Positions 8,337 to 20,440 of a stretch of 20,440 bases of DNA are shown here, one piece after another. Position 1 is the first letter of the stretch, and each line of letters opens with the position of its first letter. A program made the position numbers and the translations under genes. This DNA comes from Thermoproteota archaeon (lineage in GTDB: Archaea > Korarchaeota > Korarchaeia > Korarchaeales > Korarchaeaceae), in the NCBI GenBank assembly GCA_037917625.1, contig JAVCBY010000059.1, positions 1-20,440 of the forward strand, written 5' to 3'. The notes beneath the pieces were generated by a model, which worked only from the letters and a program-made list of their open reading frames with translations, did no database searches and was not told the DNA's origin.

Positions 8337-9140
8337 TTAATATCTCACGATGAACTCACAGAATTCATCCCCAGTTGCTTTACATCTCGTCTCCCTAACT
8401 TCCACAGGGGATCTGAGTATCCTAGTCAGAGCTCCAGTGATGACCCCCTTAGTGAAGTAGCATGATGGCTCACTCGACTTCGGGCTCGCCTCTGCCTCTA
8501 GATTCTCCTCGATCTCGATCCTCAAGGTGCCCTCACCTAACTCTAGGCTCGATCTACCCCAGCCTGAGGCAGCTAGCATACCGGACATGACATAACGTAT
8601 CACATCCATTGGTTCCTCGATCCCAGCTCTCCTCGCTATATCTATGTAATTTTCCGCGAATCCCTTCCCCATCCCATATCCTATCCTGTATATTATCGCA
8701 TAATAGGCTTGGGAGCCCAGTATCGCTATTAGATCGGAGGTTAGCGTCTTCCAAGCTTCTTTCGTTAAGGTAAAGATCCTCTCATCGTAACGCATCAGCG
8801 GGAAGTTCAATTTATCTATGAGTAGACCCTCCCTCTCGCATACTTGGTATAATACTCTTCCGATCCCCTCTATAGATGAAAATTTATCCTTAATATCGCT
8901 TATGACAGATTCTGGTTTCCCAGATATGTTCACGACTAAGTAGATCGCCCCCCTCCCTCCCTCAGCGTAAGCGGATATTTTATGGAGGTTCAATCCCAGC
9001 TCTCTCAGGACATCAGTTATCTCTCTAAGGATTCCGATCCTATCCCTAGTTACCTCCATCAGAAAGGCAGCGAGCTTATCCCCCGGTGATATCGTCACCC
9101 TAGTGAGCGGGACCCTGAAGTCTGCTGATCTTTCCCTCAT
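8337..9140 (-). CDS. ACT + V4R domain protein (paralog 1), putative ligand sensor
   Basis: N-terminal ACT signature (DRIGILREITDVL...GLNL). C-terminal V4R metal-site pattern ENLE...CYFTKG...ETRCKATGDEFCEF. Confidence 0.88.
   Translation of the reverse strand: MRERSADFRVPLTRVTISPGDKLAAFLMEVTRDRIGILREITDVLRELGLNLHKISAYAEGGRGAIYLVVNISGKPESVISDIKDKFSSIEGIGRVLYQVCEREGLLIDKLNFPLMRYDERIFTLTKEAWKTLTSDLIAILGSQAYYAIIYRIGYGMGKGFAENYIDIARRAGIEEPMDVIRYVMSGMLAASGWGRSSLELGEGTLRIEIEENLEAEASPKSSEPSCYFTKGVITGALTRILRSPVEVRETRCKATGDEFCEFIVRY
8656..8688. repeat. 33-bp direct repeat, copy 1
   Basis: GCGAATCCCTTCCCCATCCCATATCCTATCCTG, identical to 9503-9535. Confidence 0.92.
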
Positions 9141-9177
9141 GAGTATCCTCTACCCTTACTATTGAATATTTTAACCT

Positions 9178-9990
9178 TCATCCTCGGGGGATCTCTATCT
9201 TAAACTCGCAGTACTCATCCCCCTTAGCCTTGCATCTGACCTCCTCTATTGAGATAGATCTCCCGAAGGCGTACTCTAGACCACCCTTCCACATACCCTT
9301 CGTCATATAGCATAAGGGTTCCCTAGAGGTCCTATCGATCGCTTCGAAGTTCTCCCTTATCTTAAGTGAGAAAACCCCTCCGGCTTCCTCTAGAGATGCC
9401 ATACCGTAACCTGAGCACGTGTAGAGAGGAACTGATATCTTTCGAATTATTTCGAAGGGATCCTTTATGCCTACTCTCTCAGCCATTTTGAGATGATCTA
9501 CTGCGAATCCCTTCCCCATCCCATATCCTATCCTGAAGAGTATCGCCCCTGAAGCTGAGCTCCCCAAGATCCCGGATAGTTCCTCGGATAGATGCTTTAC
9601 GGCCCTAACGTTGAGGGCTACGACCCTCGTACCATCCCTCATCAAAGGGAAGAGGCAGCAAGGTATCAGGAGCCCCTTGATGCGAGATTCCTCATATTCG
9701 ACTGACCCTATCCCCTCTATCGATTCCAGATTCCTCTTCAATTCCTCGATATTTACATCGTCAGGCCTCTCGGCGATTATAGATATGAGGCCCTTCCCCT
9801 CGGTGACATGCATTAAATTAGAGAGGATATTCATCCCCCTGGATGAGAGTTTCCTCGTGACTTCAGCGAGTATCCCAGGTCTATCGCGTACTATCTCGAG
9901 GTGAAATATGAGGAGATCCTTTCCCGGAGATATAGCGAGGGGAGGGAACTTTACACTGAAGTATCGTCCCTCTAAGGGCTCATGGATCAT
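9178..9990 (-). CDS. ACT + V4R domain protein (paralog 2), putative ligand sensor
   Basis: ACT motif DRPGILAEVT...GMNI and V4R motif ENFE...CYMTKG...EVRCKAKGDEYCEF. SD GGAGGT lies upstream. Confidence 0.88.
   Translation of the reverse strand: MIHEPLEGRYFSVKFPPLAISPGKDLLIFHLEIVRDRPGILAEVTRKLSSRGMNILSNLMHVTEGKGLISIIAERPDDVNIEELKRNLESIEGIGSVEYEESRIKGLLIPCCLFPLMRDGTRVVALNVRAVKHLSEELSGILGSSASGAILFRIGYGMGKGFAVDHLKMAERVGIKDPFEIIRKISVPLYTCSGYGMASLEEAGGVFSLKIRENFEAIDRTSREPLCYMTKGMWKGGLEYAFGRSISIEEVRCKAKGDEYCEFKIEIPRG
9503..9535. repeat. 33-bp direct repeat, copy 2
   Basis: Identical to 8656-8688; the tract covers the RIGYGMGKGFA codons in both paralogs. Confidence 0.92.
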
Positions 9991-10038: not shown

Positions 10039-10251
10039 TTAATCTATATGCTCTATGAGGACGGGCCCCGGGAACATCCCCCTGGACCAGAGCCTTTGGA
10101 TGAGGAGGAACTTATCTGAGTCATTATCTATCACTCTCTCACCGAGTATTGCGATGTATTTTCCGCTGAATGACCCCTTTATCCTCTCCTTATTATTAAT
10201 GAACCACAACCTGGCCCTCCTATACTCTAGGAGATCTCTCACAGCGCTCAT
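10039..10251 (-). CDS. Small DUF5678-like protein (70 aa)
   Basis: MSAVRDLLEYRRARLWFINNKERIKGSFSGKYIAILGERVIDNDSD...PVLIEHI fits the WF...GKYIAI...V.D.D pattern of this family. The 141-aa ORF-track extension looks non-coding, so I placed the start at ATG 10251. Confidence 0.65.
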   Translation of the reverse strand: MSAVRDLLEYRRARLWFINNKERIKGSFSGKYIAILGERVIDNDSDKFLLIQRLWSRGMFPGPVLIEHID

Positions 10252-10296
10252 CGATCTTCGGAGGAGAGGGGCTAAGATAAGGCTGAGCGTTAGGAT

Positions 10297-10314
10297 GTAA
10301 TAATCGATTATTAC
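10297..10314. promoter_or_regulatory. Perfect 18-bp palindrome, candidate operator or hairpin
   Basis: GTAATAATCGATTATTAC is its own reverse complement. It lies about 46 bp upstream of ATG 10251. Confidence 0.45.
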
Positions 10315-10451
10315 GACTGCGTTAGAGTTATTTCGATCGATGATGAATCTGCATGTCGATAGTCGCGATCCTCCCTCCGATTGATATATTTTTATCTTAA
10401 CTCCAGATAAAGGGAAAAGATATAGCATTATTTTGAGGACTTCCGCGGACT

Positions 10452-12359
10452 CTAAGTGTAGCAATGCGACTTCCTCCCCACTAAGAACCCCAGGAATATA
10501 CCGAATATTAGAGCGGCAATTAGATAGACCTCCTGAATTCTGCTCTCCTCCCTCACCGTCTGCGTTACAGTCACTGTCTCCACCATTGGAGCGCTCTCCA
10601 AAGGGCTCTTAGTCTCTATCCGCCTCTCAGATGCCTGAGAGAGGAGCGAGATTACGTGAGCGTGAGCGGAGGCCAGCTCATAATAAATTATGGACTCCAA
10701 TAAGTTCTCCTCCATGAGGGATGCCATCTCAGAATAGCTCAGGGCTAGGACTGGGATTATCCCCTTCGACATGAGCGCGTTTATCGAAGAGTAACACGAG
10801 CTCTTAACGGCTTCCTTAACTGCATTGGGATCGCTCGTGAACCACTCATGTATTGAGATTATGCCGTATGCGAGAGCTGTAGTAGAGAGGCCTATGCTCC
10901 CATAATAATCCCCTGAGGAGAAAGCTGAGTTAGCATCATTCAAATTTGAATATGCTTCTTGTAAATAGCTTGAGCTAGCTCCTATCTCCTGTATGAGGCT
11001 CTCTGAGTATGAGATGACGCTCTCAGCCTCATATAGTATTGCGGATGCGACCTCCTTCATCCTGATCTCATCTACTTGCATCCTCTGGCTGAGCCCCATC
11101 AAATCCATCCAATTAAATGCTGTATCAGCCCTCCAATAAGCGTAAGTCAGATGGTGTATCGCTCCCCAGCCCATGGAATCGAGGTAATTCCCCTTTGAAG
11201 CCAGATTGACTGCTTTCTTGAGGGCATTTTTAGCATCATAATATCTAGTCTTAGAAGCTATTATCGCCTCAACTCCGCTCAGATCTTGGGGCTTAGTTGA
11301 ATTTAGCCTCTCACCCAATTCCCTCAACTTGGAGTCCACCCTCCCCATGAGCTCGCTAACAGAGTCCTCGCCCCTCAGAGCGTAATTCAAGAGGGATCTC
11401 GCGTAATCAGCCTCAACTACGGATTGAAAAGCGTAACTAGCCGCTGTGTATAAGTTCCCCTTCGCCATCTCATCCCTCGCGGACGATGAATATTTCTCAG
11501 AATCCGATAAAATATTGTTTATCACTCGCTTGCTTAAAGCCCCGAGCTTCCCAATTTCCGATTGGACGCTTCCCCTTATGGCCTCAGATTGATTTAGGTA
11601 ATTCCTCACCCACTTACTGAGGATTTCCTTGACCTCCTTAGGTATCTCGGGCCTCTCCGATGGCGGTCTCTCGATCCTCAGACCCAGCATGTAGTTTAAA
11701 GCTTCCTCTATCGTGCTGACCTCTACTACCTTCACTCCTAGCTTAGCCCCCACCTCGCTTATATTGACCTTCCTCTTCTCGACAGTCGTCAATATCAGGG
11801 GACCTATCCTGACTTGCTTAGGTACTGTCTCCTCCACTATCTCCTGACCCGCTGGTACCAAGAATATCTTAGCTCCAGCTCTCGCTGCTGCCTCCAATTT
11901 CTGGGGGATTCCCCCCACAGGGCCTATTATCCCATCTAAGTTTATCATCCCAGTTATTATGATATCCTGTCTGACTTGCTTCCCCAGGATAGCTGCTACC
12001 GTAGCTACTGTCATCGCAGCTCCTGCGCTAGGGCCTCCTATCACAGTGCTCCCGGACTCGAGCCTGTAGTAGAAGTTCATGGATTTAGGGTCCACTCCAA
12101 GTAAGTAACTAGCCACTAAGGCAGCTGTCCTAGCTGCACCCTGCGTATCTATCTGTGTGAGAGGCTCCGCTGAGAAGTAAACAATGCCCTCCCCCCTCTC
12201 GACTTCCACAGTGAGGTTCCCTAACGTACCTGAGAGCACGCCCTCCGCTGTCTGATAGACAGCTGGGACCCTGAGGAAAGCCCTGCTCCTCTCAGCTGTA
12301 GATGATATCAGGGGAATTAGCATCAATATGAGGAGCATTGCGAAGATCTTACGCATCAT
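10452..12359 (-). CDS. Secreted, membrane-anchored Lon-like S16 serine protease (archaeal COG1750 type, no AAA+ domain)
   Basis: Signal peptide; GGPSAG catalytic Ser; ITGMINLDGIIGPVGGIPQKLEAA (catalytic Lys); helical repeats; Thr/Val linker; C-terminal TM helix followed by GRK. Confidence 0.9.
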   Translation of the reverse strand: MMRKIFAMLLILMLIPLISSTAERSRAFLRVPAVYQTAEGVLSGTLGNLTVEVERGEGIVYFSAEPLTQIDTQGAARTAALVASYLLGVDPKSMNFYYRLESGSTVIGGPSAGAAMTVATVAAILGKQVRQDIIITGMINLDGIIGPVGGIPQKLEAAARAGAKIFLVPAGQEIVEETVPKQVRIGPLILTTVEKRKVNISEVGAKLGVKVVEVSTIEEALNYMLGLRIERPPSERPEIPKEVKEILSKWVRNYLNQSEAIRGSVQSEIGKLGALSKRVINNILSDSEKYSSSARDEMAKGNLYTAASYAFQSVVEADYARSLLNYALRGEDSVSELMGRVDSKLRELGERLNSTKPQDLSGVEAIIASKTRYYDAKNALKKAVNLASKGNYLDSMGWGAIHHLTYAYWRADTAFNWMDLMGLSQRMQVDEIRMKEVASAILYEAESVISYSESLIQEIGASSSYLQEAYSNLNDANSAFSSGDYYGSIGLSTTALAYGIISIHEWFTSDPNAVKEAVKSSCYSSINALMSKGIIPVLALSYSEMASLMEENLLESIIYYELASAHAHVISLLSQASERRIETKSPLESAPMVETVTVTQTVREESRIQEVYLIAALIFGIFLGFLVGRKSHCYT

Positions 12360-14074: not shown

Positions 14075-14875
14075 ATGCTAGGGAAGGAGGTAAGGCTCTC
14101 TAGGATAATGAGGGGTGACAGGATATTATGCATACCCATGGATCACGGAGTGACGGATGGTCCGATAAAAGGGTTAACTGATATCAATTGGATCGTCAAT
14201 GAAGTAACTAAGGGAGGAGCTACTTGCGTTGTCCTCCACAAGGGGATGATAAAGGCCTTGAGGAGCCCTAAGATTCCTTTCCTCATGCACATGTCAGCTA
14301 GCACATCCCTCGGGCCCGAGCCGAACAGGAAGGTGAGAGTCGCTAGCGTCATAGAGGCAGTCAGGTTAGGGGCTGATGGTGTGAGCGTTCACATCAACAT
14401 AGGGGGGGAGAGGAGCGAGCCTGAGATGCTCGAGAAACTCGGATCTGTCGCTTCAGAGGCTGATGAGTTCGGTATGCCCCTCTTAGCTATGATGTACGCG
14501 AGAGGGCCTAATATTAAGGATAAGTTCGATCCCAAAGCTATCTCTCTCGTAGCTAGGGTGGGAGCTGAGCTGGGAGCTGATATAGTGAAGGTCCCATACA
14601 CAGGGGATCCCGAGAGCTTCAAGGAGGTGACTAGAGGCGTTAGCATCCCAGTGATAATAGCTGGAGGCCCTAAGATGAGCAGTGAGAGGGAAGTACTGGA
14701 GATGGTGGAAGGAGCTATGAGAGGGGGAGCCGCTGGTGTATCGATAGGGAGGAACGTCTTCCAGCATGAGAGACCAGCTAGCATGGTCAGGGCTATAGCT
14801 TCGATAATCTTCGATGGTTTGAGCGTGGAGGATGCTATGGGTGTATTGAATGAAGATAGTGGTAACTCTGAGTGA
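14075..14875 (+). CDS. aroA': Class I (DhnA-family) aldolase, most similar to 2-amino-3,7-dideoxy-D-threo-hept-6-ulosonate synthase
   Basis: PMDHG, HMSASTSLGPEPNRKV, PLLAMMYARG, Schiff-base GADIVK, IAGGPK and GRNVFQH. It is adjacent to and overlaps aroD. Confidence 0.8.
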   Translation: MLGKEVRLSRIMRGDRILCIPMDHGVTDGPIKGLTDINWIVNEVTKGGATCVVLHKGMIKALRSPKIPFLMHMSASTSLGPEPNRKVRVASVIEAVRLGADGVSVHINIGGERSEPEMLEKLGSVASEADEFGMPLLAMMYARGPNIKDKFDPKAISLVARVGAELGADIVKVPYTGDPESFKEVTRGVSIPVIIAGGPKMSSEREVLEMVEGAMRGGAAGVSIGRNVFQHERPASMVRAIASIIFDGLSVEDAMGVLNEDSGNSE

Positions 14876-15476
14876 TCCCGATAACTTGAGGGAGAACATC
14901 GAGAGAGCACTTAAGATGGGAGCTGATTTAGTTGAGCTCAGAGTGGATCTAATTTGTGATGAGCTTCCACCCGCGGAATCATTGAGCCGCTTGATATCCG
15001 GGCTCAACGATAAAATAATAATTACTTATAGGAGCAGGGCTCATGGGGGAAGGGGCGACTCTCAAGATGCGAGATGGCTTATATCCGTATCGAAGATATG
15101 CAGGTACGTCGATGTTGAATATGAGAACTCTAACATTGGGATAGAGAATGCCATATTCTCCTGGCATGATCCCAATGGAACTCCCAGTTATGAGGAGCTG
15201 CTCTCGATAAGCGAGAAGTTGCTCTCCTTAGGGGGTATAGCTAAGGTAGTGACTTACGCGAGGGATGAGAGAGAAGCTTACAGAGTCCTCTCCCTCTACA
15301 AATTGGGGCATAGAGGGAAGCTCGTCGCTTTCTCAATGGGGGAGAGAGGTTCTTTCAGCAGGAGGCTCTCAGCAGCTTTGGGCTCCCCCCTCTTATATTC
15401 TCACTTAGGCAGAGCAGTTGCAGAGGGACAGATAAGCTTGGATGAGGCAATTCTCCTCAAGGAATTACTCTCCTGA
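14850..15476 (+). CDS. aroD: Type I 3-dehydroquinate dehydratase
   Basis: ADLVELRVD, IITYR...GG, YVDVE, SWHD (catalytic His), IAKVV (Schiff-base Lys), FSMGERG..SR and GQI. Confidence 0.9.
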   Translation: MKIVVTLSDPDNLRENIERALKMGADLVELRVDLICDELPPAESLSRLISGLNDKIIITYRSRAHGGRGDSQDARWLISVSKICRYVDVEYENSNIGIENAIFSWHDPNGTPSYEELLSISEKLLSLGGIAKVVTYARDEREAYRVLSLYKLGHRGKLVAFSMGERGSFSRRLSAALGSPLLYSHLGRAVAEGQISLDEAILLKELLS

Positions 15477-16059
15477 GAAGATAAGGCATATTCTTTATCC
15501 TCTCATAAGTCCTCACTGGATTGACTTTCCTCAGCCTCTTGAGAGCTTTTATGAGGGCTTCATCCACTATATCCGATTTTAGCATCACCCTCTCCATTGC
15601 TTCATCGAAGTCCTCCGGCACGTATGAAGCGAGCCAAGCCCAGCTCATCAAGTAGCTATATCTATCGAGAGAATCCAAGATTTTTGGATCCCATATCGCT
15701 ACTATAGGATAGACGAACCTAGATAGGAGCTCTTTCTCCCCGCATCTCTCCAGATCCCTAGCTATCTCATACGCTCTCTTAGGGAATGACATCGCTACCC
15801 TGCCTAAGGCTACAGCTAAGATTAGCCTCCCCTCTGATAACTCGCACCAACATTTCATGAGCTGGAAATCATCTGGATTCATGATCCTCCCTATCCTATC
15901 CCCCAACATCGCTGAGAAGTAGTTAGGGATATTCATCTTCGTCGGGGTCCTGCAATCGACAGTCTCCTCCCTCAAGGCATCTGAGAAGGAGGAGCATCCC
16001 CTCCTGAGGGCTTCCAATAGTTTTGGTGCTATTTCATCAGGATCGGGGCACTTCATCAT
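15457..16059 (-). CDS. Hypothetical alpha-helical (possibly HEAT-like) protein
   Basis: 200-aa ORF with typical codon usage, coupled to the upstream gene by an ATGATGA overlap. No motif recognised. Confidence 0.65.
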   Translation of the reverse strand: MMKCPDPDEIAPKLLEALRRGCSSFSDALREETVDCRTPTKMNIPNYFSAMLGDRIGRIMNPDDFQLMKCWCELSEGRLILAVALGRVAMSFPKRAYEIARDLERCGEKELLSRFVYPIVAIWDPKILDSLDRYSYLMSWAWLASYVPEDFDEAMERVMLKSDIVDEALIKALKRLRKVNPVRTYERIKNMPYLLRRVIP

Positions 16060-16889
16060 CCTCTCATCCTCCTCATTATCTCCCTCTTCACGCTCTTAGC
16101 TTCCCTCAAGAGGTTCTCGATCTGCCAACTATCGAAGATTGGGTGCTCTAGGAGGAATAGTATGGACTCTAGGAGGGAGTTCAAGTATTTCATGCTCCCA
16201 GAGATCCTCTCCTCAGATATCAGTAAGTTAGTGCTCGGAGGGTATTCGGGGATGAGCTTCCTCAACGTCTCCATATCTATCATGCATCCCACTTCCTTAA
16301 TTAATCCTCTCCTCAGGGCTCCCTTATCATAACCGTAAGCATAGAGCTCCCCCGATGCTTCACGACCCAAGAGGAGGAATGAGATGAATATGACATCCAC
16401 GCCTTCAGAATTAGCTTCCTCCTCTATCTCCCTCAAGTCCTCTATGGATAGGAATCCCATTAGTAGGAGGACCCTCAGCCTCCCTCCCCTGCTCCTCACC
16501 TCCTCCTTAACCTCATGCAGGATCCCGGGCCTCACATCCGGGAAGATCGATATTAGCACGATATCCCCAGAGCTGGACCCTCTTGGATATGGGATTATCA
16601 TCTCCCCTATCTTACCGTATACCATGGGCCTCCCGAACCTCTCCAGGGAGAACTGCGAGATGATTGAGCTCATCCCAGGATCCCTCAGGAGCCTCACTAG
16701 GGGCTCTCCGCAAATATGAGGGAAAGATGCATACCTTATTAGGGATGGTAGCTCCAAAATATATACGTTATATGGTAAATTTGTCTTGAGAAGTCTACAA
16801 TTCCTATTCGCTATATTTATTTTAGAGGTCTCGAGCACCTCTATACCGAACTCCTCGATTATCTCCTCTAAATGGAGCCTAGGATCCAA
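16056..16889 (-). CDS. Hypothetical protein (alpha/beta; possibly a degenerate phosphoribosyltransferase-like fold)
   Basis: 277-aa ORF whose TTG start overlaps the uppS stop, preceded by GAGGAGG. The fold suggestion is weak inference. Confidence 0.65.
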   Translation of the reverse strand: MDPRLHLEEIIEEFGIEVLETSKINIANRNCRLLKTNLPYNVYILELPSLIRYASFPHICGEPLVRLLRDPGMSSIISQFSLERFGRPMVYGKIGEMIIPYPRGSSSGDIVLISIFPDVRPGILHEVKEEVRSRGGRLRVLLLMGFLSIEDLREIEEEANSEGVDVIFISFLLLGREASGELYAYGYDKGALRRGLIKEVGCMIDMETLRKLIPEYPPSTNLLISEERISGSMKYLNSLLESILFLLEHPIFDSWQIENLLREAKSVKREIMRRMRG

Positions 16890-17667
16890 ACCTCCTCTTC
16901 CTCCTCTGATAGTCCCTTATAGCCCTGAGCAGATCGACTTTCCTCAGCTCGGGCAAGTAGACCTCGCAGAAGTATAGCTCGGAGTAAGCTGACTGCCAGA
17001 GCAGGAAGTTGCTGAGCCTCTCCTCCCCGGATGTCCTTATTATGAGATCAGGGTCAGGTAGATCTGGAGCGTAGAGATGCATCCTTATCACATCATCATC
17101 TATCTCATCAGGATCTAAAGCTCCTTCTTTCACTTTCCTCGCTATCTTCCTCACGGCATCCACTATCTCAGCCCTCCCCCCATAAGCTATCGCTAAGTTA
17201 AGTGTCTTGCTGAATCCGGATGTAGAAGCTTCCATCTCCTCAGCTATACTCCTTATCCCCTCTGGTAGCATCTCCTTCCTCCCGACTACCCTGAATGAGA
17301 CCTCTCTCTCCCTCAGAGTATTTATATTCTCCTTCAGCTCGAGCAACTTCTCCTCCATCGCTTTGAAAACAGCTTCTACTTGATCCTTGGGCCTCCTGAA
17401 GTTCTCGGTTGAGAAAGCGAATAAAGTAACGTGCTCGATCCCTAGATCGAGTAGCCATTCTAGGAGTTCCTTAGTCTTATTAGCCCCGATCCTATATCCC
17501 TCAAGCCAACTTAAACTCCTCTTAAGGGCATACCTCCTATTCCCGTCCAATATGAGGGCGACATGCTTAGGGATGGGCCCCTCCCTTACCGCTGACTCTA
17601 AGTACCTCAAGTAGAGGGGCATGCCCAAGAAGCTAGCTATCCTGTAGACCGCTTTGAGGAGCCCCAA
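16879..17667 (-). CDS. uppS: cis-prenyltransferase (undecaprenyl/polyprenyl diphosphate synthase)
   Basis: IPKHVALILDGNRR, FAFSTENFRRP, YGGRAEI and PDPDLIIRTSGEERLSNFLLWQSAYSE...RRFG. The start is probably TTG 17667, after GGAGGGG (the ORF track begins at 17694). Confidence 0.96.
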   Translation of the reverse strand: MGLLKAVYRIASFLGMPLYLRYLESAVREGPIPKHVALILDGNRRYALKRSLSWLEGYRIGANKTKELLEWLLDLGIEHVTLFAFSTENFRRPKDQVEAVFKAMEEKLLELKENINTLREREVSFRVVGRKEMLPEGIRSIAEEMEASTSGFSKTLNLAIAYGGRAEIVDAVRKIARKVKEGALDPDEIDDDVIRMHLYAPDLPDPDLIIRTSGEERLSNFLLWQSAYSELYFCEVYLPELRKVDLLRAIRDYQRRKRRFGS

Positions 17668-17997
17668 TTCGCACCCCTCCGAGCCATTTATCAAGTCCGT
17701 TATATAATCGGAACTGCTACATTAAAAACTTCGGGATCCTAGAGCTTTCTTCAGGAATGATTGAAGTCCTGGCACAGTCTCCTCGAGTCTGAGGGGATTA
17801 GATCTCATCTTCATGCCTCATCGTTGGTTCTGGGAAATCCCCCAGAACTCATGCATGGACTAAGCCTAACTTATGGGAGATTCATCGGAAATTCAGAGCC
17901 TGATTGAGCTTTTCAATCCACGCTTACCTCACATCGTATCATGAGCGATAATGGACCATGATTTATAACTTATTCCTCCTCCCTATTTGGGAGGCTC

Positions 17998-18405
17998 ATG
18001 GACGAGCTAGACAGAAAGATCTTGGGCATATTAGTGAGGAACGCTAGAACTCCCTTCACAGAAATAGCTGAGCAACTTGGAGTGAGTGAGGCAACCATAA
18101 GGAAGAGAGTGGATAAGCTCATCAGCAGCGGCGTGATAAGGAAATTCACAGTTGAGCTAGGGGATACCGCGATGCGGGCGATCGTTATGATCAAGGTGAG
18201 GCCGGGCTATAACATCCCGAAGGTCGCGAAGGAGATAGCTGATATAGAGGAAGTGGTGAGGGCTTATGAGGTCACGGGGGAATATGATATAGTGGCTGAG
18301 ATAGCTAGCGCCGATACAGCATCCCTAAATAAGACTATAGAGAGGATAAGGAGCAATGAGGGGGTCGGCGGTACCCTGAGCATGATAGTGCTCGCTATCT
18401 GGTGA
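17998..18405 (+). CDS. Lrp/AsnC family transcriptional regulator
   Basis: HTH MDELDRKILGILVRNARTPFTEIAEQLGVSEATIRKRV and RAM domain YEVTGEYDI. SD GGGAGG. Confidence 0.95.
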   Translation: MDELDRKILGILVRNARTPFTEIAEQLGVSEATIRKRVDKLISSGVIRKFTVELGDTAMRAIVMIKVRPGYNIPKVAKEIADIEEVVRAYEVTGEYDIVAEIASADTASLNKTIERIRSNEGVGGTLSMIVLAIW

Positions 18406-18469
18406 ACTCATACTGTTTAGCTCGTCTCCACTGAAATATTTAAAATGTTTCCTCTTCAATATCCGCTGG

Positions 18470-19154
18470 ATGATGATAGAGGAGCTCCAGCTCATCAACT
18501 TCAAGTCGTTTAAAAGAGCTACGATAGTAATTCCTAAAGGTTTTGTCGCAATAACAGGCCCTAATGGATCCGGAAAAAGCAACATACTTGATGCAATTGC
18601 TTTTTTGATGGGATGGAGGGCTAGGAGGCTGAGGGCATCCAAGCTGGAGCACTTAGTCAGGAAGGGGGCTCCGTGGGCTCAAGTGAACCTCACTTTAGCG
18701 AACTCAGGGGAGAGGATCAAGATACAGAGGAGGGTGAAGCCGAATGGGAAGAGCTCATATAGAGTGAACGATAGATCCTTACCAGCTCATGAGGTCATGG
18801 ATATCCTCAGTTCCTTGGGCTTAGTAGCTGAGAGGTACACTTTCGTGACTCAGGGGGATATAACATCCATAGTTGAGATGAGCCCAGGGGAGAGGTATGA
18901 AATACTTAAGGAGATAAGTGGCATCTCTGATTACGATGAGAGGAGAGATAAAGCTTTGGAGGAGCTTAGAGAGGTGGAGCAGCTCTTGAGGGAGATCTCC
19001 GCAGTTCTCAGAGAAAAGGAAAAGGAATTAAAAAGAGTTGAAGAGGAGATAAGAATATTAGAAGAAAGATCGAAAATAGAAGAGAAATATAAAAGGATTA
19101 AGAAATATCAGATATTATCTGAGCTGAAATTATTGAGGGAGAGGTTGAGCTCCC
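18470..19154 (+). pseudogene. smc: smc 5' part: N-terminal ATPase half and start of the coiled coil (228 codons), interrupted by an inversion
   Basis: LINFKSF, Walker A GPNGSGKSNILDA, R-loop RRLRA, YRVN, Q-loop VTQGD and EISGISDY, followed by heptads. After ...LLRERLSS the frame becomes S/L-rich antisense text. Confidence 0.92.
19123..19154 (+). repeat. 32-bp inverted repeat, left copy
   Basis: GCTGAAATTATTGAGGGAGAGGTTGAGCTCCC is the exact reverse complement of 20388-20419. Confidence 0.95.
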
Positions 19155-20387
19155 CACTCCCACCCTCGAACAATAAGGATATCCAGTTGTTGAAGGCATC
19201 TGAGAGCTTCCTCAAAGTATCTCTCAATATCTCCTCCCTCTCAGAATCGATCTTCTCTATTAAGCTCTCTATCTCCTCCTTCCTCCTCATGAAAGAATCA
19301 TACTTCGATTTAACTTCCTCGAAATCCCCCTTCCTCCTCTCATACTCCTCCCTAGCTCTAGGATTAGCATTCCCCAAGCTCCTCAACTCCATTTCAAGGA
19401 TCATCATCTCTTTCCTCGGATCAGGGACTTCGAGTGGATCTACATCAGATAGATCATCGAGCTCCCTCTCCAAAACCTTAATTTTAGCTAAAATTTCGCT
19501 TCTCTCCTCAATCACCTTTCTGGTCTTCCTTATAAAGTCTTCCCTCTTTGAGAGGGCCTCCTGGTACTTCCTCCTCAGCCCATGGACCTCCCTCCTCAAA
19601 GCGTCAAGCCTCTCAAACCCTTCGTCCCTCTCAGGCAGGCTCATGAGCTCCCTCTCCTTTGAAGTTATCTCCTCATCTATCTGCTGGATCTCATCCTTTA
19701 ATTCATTTATCTCCTCCATCAATTTCCCAATATTTCCCAAACTAGGCTTTCCAGCTACTATACTACCCTCTCTTTCCACTATCTCCCCATCCATAGTCAC
19801 ATACTTAGCTCTACCCAGGAGCTCCTCGCTCAATTCATCGAGGTCATCAATCAGTATCGCGTTGAATATCTGCAGGGCCAATGCCTCGTACTCCCCATCG
19901 AATAGGAGGAAGTTGTATAAGCCCCTTTCCCTCCTCCTCTCCTCTCCCCTCAATACGTCCATCGGTATTATCCTGAACCTGCCCTCCACTTCCCTGAGAG
20001 CTCTAGCTATCCTCTTAGCCCCATCCAAGTCCCTAACCACTATATCGTTCAACCTACCCGATCCCACCGCTATGAACGGGAGCTCGTAACCAGGCATGGG
20101 CCTTATCAACTCAGATACGGTTCCGAGGAATGATGGATCTCTCCTGATGAAAGATGGGATCTCCCTTCCCCTCATAATAGATGAGATGACCTCCTCCTTA
20201 GCTTCCAGGGCTTTCCTTAGAGCTTCCCTCTGCCTCCTCAGGGAATCCAACTCAGCTGATATCTGCCCCCTCCTCCTGACGGGAGAATCCCTCAAATTAG
20301 ATTCTAGAGATCTCATCTCCTCCTCCTTTCTCTCAAGCTCCCTCCTCAAGGATTCTACATCGATCTCCTCCCGCTTCGGTTCCTCCA
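19155..20387 (-). pseudogene. smc: smc middle part (coiled coil - hinge - coiled coil - start of C-terminal head), inverted
   Basis: Hinge motifs LGTVSELI, RLNDIVV, GRFRIIPMD and VTMDGEIVEREGSIVAG (about 19750-20157). Smc C-arm motif LGNANPRAREEY. Ends with AFNNWISLLFEGGSG. Length is 1233 bp, or 411 codons. Confidence 0.92.
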
Positions 20388-20419
20388 GGGAGCTCAACCT
20401 CTCCCTCAATAATTTCAGC
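20388..20419 (-). repeat. 32-bp inverted repeat, right copy
   Basis: GGGAGCTCAACCTCTCCCTCAATAATTTCAGC. Confidence 0.95.
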
Positions 20420-20440
20420 AGATAGCTCTCAGCAGCTTTG
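20420..20440 (+). pseudogene. smc: Probable resumption of the smc C-terminal head (runs off the right edge)
   Basis: (g)AG ATA GCT CTC AGC AGC TTT G reads E-I-A-L-S-S-F, a natural continuation of FEGGSG. Only 21 nt are visible. Confidence 0.5.

Follow-up and report, generated by a model that had tools for sequence, protein, structure and literature searches.

An apparent inversion within an archaeal smc gene is best explained as a fold-back chimera at a contig end

The window analysed here, 20,440 nt in length, is the entire contig C34 of the draft assembly G000 (1.22 Mb, 116 contigs, 84% complete). At its 3' end, the smc gene is found with its N-terminal head on one strand and its hinge and coiled coils on the other, between two perfect inverted repeats. 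A sequence-only reading of this region had proposed either a condensin allele that is invertible or rearranged, or else a chimera. We conclude with high confidence that the apparent inversion is an artefact, i.e. a fold-back chimera at the 3' end of C34 which is absent from the genome. The observations behind this conclusion are the anatomy of the contig end, the colinear form of the gene in independent contigs and in relatives, and the recurrence of similar ends across the assembly. As to the origin of the false joins, we infer that they derive from physically chimeric library molecules, of the type generated by strand-displacement whole-genome amplification, which were used by the assembler at the contig end. 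An invertible condensin gene in an archaeon, if real, would be remarkable, so that the question of an artefact was worth settling firmly. Of the two alternatives, the chimera is supported, whereas the biological one is rejected in view of the relatives, the independent contigs and the similar ends found on 23 of the 116 contigs.

Structure of the smc locus

The perfect inverted repeat described in the sequence-only reading was recovered by repeat search at positions 19123-19154 and 20388-20419, with arms of 32 nt that are 100% complementary and are separated by 1233 nt. By our own estimate, the chance expectation for such a 32-nt pair in 20 kb is about 1e-11. The right arm stops 21 nt short of the end of C34. 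The division of the gene between the two strands, also described there, was borne out by the reading frames and by Pfam: the Smc N-head lies on the plus strand and the coil-hinge-coil portion on the minus strand. The plus frame (18470-19154) matches positions 1-136 of the 220 of SMC_N (E 6.8e-28) and includes the Walker A motif, the G..G.GKS pattern being found in this N-terminal head frame, while the minus frame (19108-20439) contains SMC_hinge (E 1.7e-11; frame residues 103-187) amid coiled-coil sequence.

Flipping the segment 19155-20387 fuses the left junction in frame (...ILSELKLLRERLSS|LEEPKREEID...), as had been claimed, and this fused order is the native one in the intact gene of the relative G016 (...QILSELKFLREKLSSLEEPKPEEIDVE...). 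Reversal yields no full smc, the flipped allele ending in ...GGSGELNLSLNNFSR with a stop at 20423-20425, after 651 aa. Neither an LSGGE signature nor a C-terminal head was found in this 651-aa frame. If a true inversion between the two arms had taken place, the C-head codons would be expected after the right arm; a short stub is found there instead.

The intact smc gene of G016 (L010:847-3123; 759 aa, 92% identical to the smc of the window) was used as a query to trace the origin of each segment. With blastn, gene bases 1-685 align with C34 18470-19154 on the plus strand and gene bases 647-1935 with 20424-19138 on the minus strand, both at 92% identity. As for the last ~340 bases of the gene, which correspond to the C-head, tblastn and blastn searches with the whole gene gave no match anywhere in the 116 contigs. 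When the final 6.4 kb of the window were compared with the closed genome G012 and with G016, they proved colinear up to about 19154, after which the adjacent DNA follows on the opposite strand. Since this holds for both G012 and G016, only one non-native join, hereafter J1, lies within smc.

The native 5' part of smc, which comprises the N-head, the Walker A motif and the start of the first coil arm, thus occupies 18470..19154 on the plus strand (gene bases 1-685). J1, the false junction at which the strand switches, falls within 19138..19154, where the G016 alignments of both segments overlap. These positions fit the N-coil on the plus strand as well as the first C-head codons on the minus strand (GELNLS here, GELFLS in G016). 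The microhomology core at J1, GGGAGCTC/GAGCTCCC, is certain, measures 8 nt and contains the palindrome GAGCTC; G016 and G012 have it at both sites, again with a length of 8 nt. The overlap could extend up to 17 nt if the strain has AAC at one codon, in other words if its own C-head reads GELNLS.

The reversed segment (19138..20419, minus strand) corresponds, in the G016 and G012 alignments, to smc bases ~654-1935, i.e. coil, hinge, coil and the first six C-head codons (GELNLS); it is internally intact and its reading frame is open. Concerning the two repeat arms, the left one (19123..19154, plus strand) is the genuine single genomic copy, located in the N-coil and coding for ELKLLRERLSS, and the right one (20388..20419, minus strand) is, judging from the independent contigs, G016 and G012, the same genomic 32 nt read twice. 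The repeat is perfect because the reversed segment runs 32 nt back past the point at which the contig departs at J1. An origin of the 32 nt as k-1 of a k=33 assembly graph was also considered and dropped, since terminal arms elsewhere in the assembly range from 24 to 1062 nt and the position of the second junction explains the value of 32.

This second chimeric junction (J2) and the terminal stub lie at 20413..20440 on the plus strand. Beyond the right arm, the 21 nt that remain belong neither to native smc nor to the C-head. The stretch 20413-20440 matches 15353-15380 (plus strand) at 25 of 28 positions in register, and its three mismatches are clustered: TTTCAGC(AG) is common to 15353-15361, followed by the three mismatches and then by 16 nt identical to 15365-15380. 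The tail 20425-20440 is therefore an exact copy of 15365-15380, which is the only other exact match in the assembly (chance expectation for the 16-mer, 9.5e-6). The source of the stub (15353..15380, plus strand) lies about 5 kb upstream on the contig, within an ORF (14850-15476) for a type I 3-dehydroquinase (PF01487, E 1.2e-35). The tail also has an inverted similarity of 81% to 19193-19208, which was put down to chance, the 16-nt match at 15365 being exact.

Taken in order, these features describe the following path. The contig follows native smc on the plus strand to 19154, where it switches, at the J1 microhomology (8-17 nt), to the reverse strand of DNA located natively ~1.25 kb downstream. 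It then reads the coil, hinge and coil of native smc backwards, to 32 nt beyond its point of departure, before a second strand switch at TTTCAGC (J2) onto DNA 5 kb upstream, and ends 21 nt later. The real gene would accordingly remain colinear and intact, with its C-head and ~1 kb of downstream DNA in the unassembled gap between the end of C34 and the start of C1. In terms of distances, J1 joins gene base 685 to base ~1935 (~1.25 kb) and J2 joins native ~19116-19122 to 15360 (~3.8 kb), each with a segment inverted relative to the genome; the complementarity at the junctions is 8-17 nt for J1 and 7-9 nt for J2.

The gene in relatives and in other sequencing runs

The smc genes of eight relatives were extracted, that of L014 being excluded for it is cut by a contig edge. 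Each is a single colinear frame of 758-775 aa, in which the C-head follows GG.G.L.L(S/T). Across the genus, the query was matched in 17 of 18 genomes, of which 12 have complete frames, all of 758-775 aa. Among the other matched genomes, four have smc split or cut at contig ends, and G017 has a match of 39 residues only. The 32-nt repeat does not recur in these close relatives: G016 and G012 share the 8-nt palindromic core at both sites and not the 32-nt repeat.

In G016 and G012, the DNA situated ~1.07 kb past the smc stop matches the start of contig C1 (C1:1-85/94), which places smc across the unassembled gap of ~1.4 kb between the end of C34 and the start of C1. The real smc is thus expected to be intact and to bridge this gap, and the absence of the C-head from the window and from the 116 contigs reflects a gap in the assembly and no defect of the gene. 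A PF02463 search of G000 for the C-head returned 17 matches, of which only C34 (the N-head) and C62 were above the cut-off. C62 was rejected as the missing C-head, being a paralogue at 27-30% identity, and the remaining matches are weak and of the head-like ATPase kind.

The 39-residue match in G017, a genome rated 99% complete, is located at G017:C24:49846-49962, shows 82% identity and lies within a frame of 185 aa. A full-length smc was not found in this genome with this query; the gene may be diverged, lost or reduced to a remnant.

For the comparison with independent data, contigs of sequencing runs X1, X2, X3 and X6 were aligned to the window at 90% or more, X4, X5, X7 and X8 (small shares) and X9 being left out. 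Three runs cover most of the window, and the runs holding it are labelled as hot-spring metagenomes. In X1 (record 4, ~99%), X2 (record 12, ~99%) and X6 (record 23, a 20.9-kb contig, ~92%), position 19122 on the plus strand is joined directly to position 20419 on the minus strand. The 32 letters of the repeat fit on either side of this single colinear joint (19122/20419), from which it follows that X1, X2 and X6 hold one copy of them. The contigs with the colinear join represent two studies, or one if the study of X1 is set aside as a possible source of the assembly; X1-X3 differ from the window by ~1% (for X1 record 4, at 9 of 759 letters) and none is shown to be the source.

In each of the four runs (three studies), the minus-strand contig departs from the window at 19138 and goes on into the missing C-head. 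The consensus of the loose ends in X6 is exactly the reverse complement of the G016 codons for DRGLEMRVNL, and that of X1-X3 is one base off these codons, with an N -> S change. These matches to the G016 C-head codons indicate that the C-head is present in near-identical strains, directly after GEL(N/F)LS. The contigs of the four runs showed no form other than the colinear one; as contigs drop rare variants, a minority inverted form would be beyond the reach of such data. Positions 20420-20440 are covered by none of the listed contigs, and 19137-19155 is crossed by none of them on the plus strand; this absence carries no evidential weight.

Inverted duplications at other contig ends

The whole of G000 contains 66 exact intra-contig inverted pairs of at least 20 nt, of which 10 have overlapping arms. 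Among the 56 non-overlapping pairs, 25 have an arm at 25 nt or less from a contig end, while the bases that near an end make up ~1.1% of the total. These end-proximal pairs sit on 23 of the 116 contigs: besides C34, the 22 others are C6, C7, C28, C29, C35, C39, C48, C52, C53, C54, C55, C57, C58, C64, C72, C76, C80, C91, C95, C100, C110 and C115. Terminal arm lengths on the affected contigs vary from 24 to 1062 nt, the maximum being found on C80 (4052 nt), which carries 1062-nt arms at both ends. Some lengths recur, namely 125 nt on C6, C29, C55 and C110, and 114 nt on C35 and C58.

Six further ends were mapped to G012 as controls, and fold-backs were found in all five that were informative, the C28 end being without counterpart in G012. 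C55 has the same anatomy as C34: its first 2.6 kb are flipped relative to G012, with an overlap of 5 nt between the two segments. C95, C29 and C53 each finish with an inverted stub (84-125 nt) that duplicates part of the contig's own interior, and the end of C39 carries two inverted stubs in succession.

Genes near the affected contig ends are likely mis-called. The practical value of these observations lies in the quality control of G000: one fifth of its contigs (23/116) carry an inverted duplication at an end, and in at least two of these contigs (C34 and C55) the end is flipped on a kilobase scale. With 23 of 116 contigs affected, 'broken', 'inverted' or 'palindromic' genes within a few kb of G000 contig ends are to be distrusted. 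Such cases can be caught by a simple screen, in which exact inverted repeats having an arm at a contig end are listed and the end concerned is then mapped to a relative.

Two inverted repeats located in contig interiors were also observed. On C1, a repeat of ~650 nt (18426-19081 / 52753-53408) consists of exact blocks of 63, 248 and 246 nt, with its arms 34 kb apart; far from the contig ends and unlike the terminal cases, it may represent a true duplication of a gene or element. On C63, exact inverted pairing is found between a 39-nt sequence and two neighbouring stretches (24665-24703 / 24716-24754 / 24951-24989).

Origin of the false joins and alternative explanations

Homologies of 5-17 nt, such as those seen at the junctions, seem insufficient for a k-mer graph to link two segments without a spanning read. 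On this ground, physical chimeras are fairly strongly favoured over a purely computational misjoin as the source of the fold-back chimera. Chimeras formed during multiple displacement amplification (MDA) have been characterised in two studies. In the first, 85% of 475 chimeras were inverted, the joined segments were mostly less than 10 kb apart and the junctions had 2-21 nt of complementarity (PMC1855051, Lasken & Stockwell 2007); in the second, the overlaps peaked at 6 nt (5-8 nt) and distances reached up to 5 kb (PMC4595205, Tu et al. 2015). C34 resembles the chimeras described in the two papers in several respects: its second segment is inverted relative to the genome, its joined segments are less than 10 kb apart (1.25 kb for J1, ~3.7-5 kb for J2), its junction complementarity is short and within the reported 2-21 nt, and it has more than one junction in a row. 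It differs in being an assembled contig and not a set of single reads, one chimera having been extended by the assembler to a reversed segment of 1.3 kb.

A purely computational misjoin, in which the assembler would have switched strands at short inverted repeats in low-coverage ends, is a variant of the same artefact and appears unlikely. That terminal arms of equal length recur (four of 125 nt, two of 114 nt) points to a parameter of the software or of read length, and all such cases are at contig ends. On the whole, however, arm lengths vary (24-1062 nt), and the homologies are 8-17 nt at J1 and 7-9 nt at J2, with a 5-nt overlap at C55. Such homologies are shorter than the usual assembler k-mers, so that a spanning read seems to be needed. 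From the recurring stub lengths, the ends seem to be shaped by read length or by the assembler.

A real and fixed fold-back or inversion breakpoint in the smc of this strain, by which the gene would be destroyed, is very improbable. The window differs by ~1% from the strains of the compared runs, which leaves room for a strain-private event. Yet such an event would need two strand switches within 1.3 kb together with a 28-nt near-copy from 5 kb upstream, all of this at a contig end, and the same architecture is found on 23 of 116 contigs and is non-native relative to G012 in each of the five informative controls. It is also at odds with the genus-wide survey (smc matched in 17 of 18 relatives, with 12 complete frames of 758-775 aa). 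More improbable still is a related scenario in which the GAGCTC-centred microhomology drives real in vivo fold-backs and the contig has captured a minority or strain-private broken condensin allele.

There remains the comparison with bacterial invertons and intragenic invertible segments, in which a pair of inverted repeats flanks a segment inside a coding region. C34 shares this layout. It departs from it in that its repeat is one genuine genomic copy, that neither orientation of smc on C34 encodes a complete protein, that the structure is at a contig end and that no second orientation was seen in the independent contigs. Nor was a recombinase found: the sequence-only reading had noted none in the window, and a scan of 19 other ORFs agreed with it. 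At E <= 1e-5, these 19 ORFs (at least 110 aa) gave no match to an integrase, invertase or transposase family, four of them (1-462, 10039-10464, 15457-16059 and 16056-16889) having no Pfam family at this threshold. The scan started from 25 listed frames, from which three that overlap strong-match genes and the three smc frames were excluded; of the smc frames, the smc portion of the first (18470-19154) and the whole of the third were scanned separately.

A phase-variable switch, in which site-specific inversion between the 32-bp repeats would toggle Smc, has next to no probability: a perfect 32-nt inverted repeat does flank the segment, whose flipping gives an in-frame left junction, but the flipped product has 651 aa and lacks the C-head, leaving neither orientation functional, the DNA beyond the right arm is a stub from 15365-15380 and not smc, the 32 nt occur once in the colinear contigs and reduce to 8 nt common to both sites in G016 and G012, and the 19 ORFs hold no recombinase family.

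The Smc homologue and its surroundings

The gene of the window is a short-armed Smc homologue and is best named so. The intact Smc of G016 matches SMC_N over residues 3-745 and SMC_hinge over residues 314-412, with both the Walker A motif and the LSGGE signature. Its score against SMC_prok_A is 433.3 bits, below the NCBIfam equivalog cut-off of 729.4, owing to its length of 759 aa vs. the 1165 positions of the profile. The gene of the relatives thus resembles prokaryotic Smc (TIGR02169, SMC_prok_A) by its SMC_N head split over both ends, its SMC_hinge, its Walker A motif and its LSGGE signature, and differs from it by its size (~760 aa vs. a 1165-position profile) and its much shorter coiled-coil arms. 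Throughout the genus, this homologue has 758-775 aa, with the hinge present and arms some 150-230 residues long. Such naturally short arms may be of interest where the role of arm length is studied. In the literature on Korarchaeum Smc coiled coils, as far as titles and the beginnings of abstracts indicate, no work on short Smc arms was found. In the passages on SMC in the Korarchaeota paper PMC12787533, it serves only as a dating marker, and the terms 'single-cell' and 'multiple displacement' are absent from its main text.

Upstream of smc, the spacer 17719-17951, between a prenyltransferase gene (16879-17694, minus strand) and an Lrp/AsnC regulator gene (17998-18405, plus strand), is without counterpart in G016 and G012, and the X6 contig has 441 other letters in its place. 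The spacer varies between strains and lies immediately upstream of the lrp-smc pair. Elsewhere in the window, two adjacent paralogous genes are found at 8337-9990 on the minus strand, both ending in a V4R domain and one also having an ACT domain.
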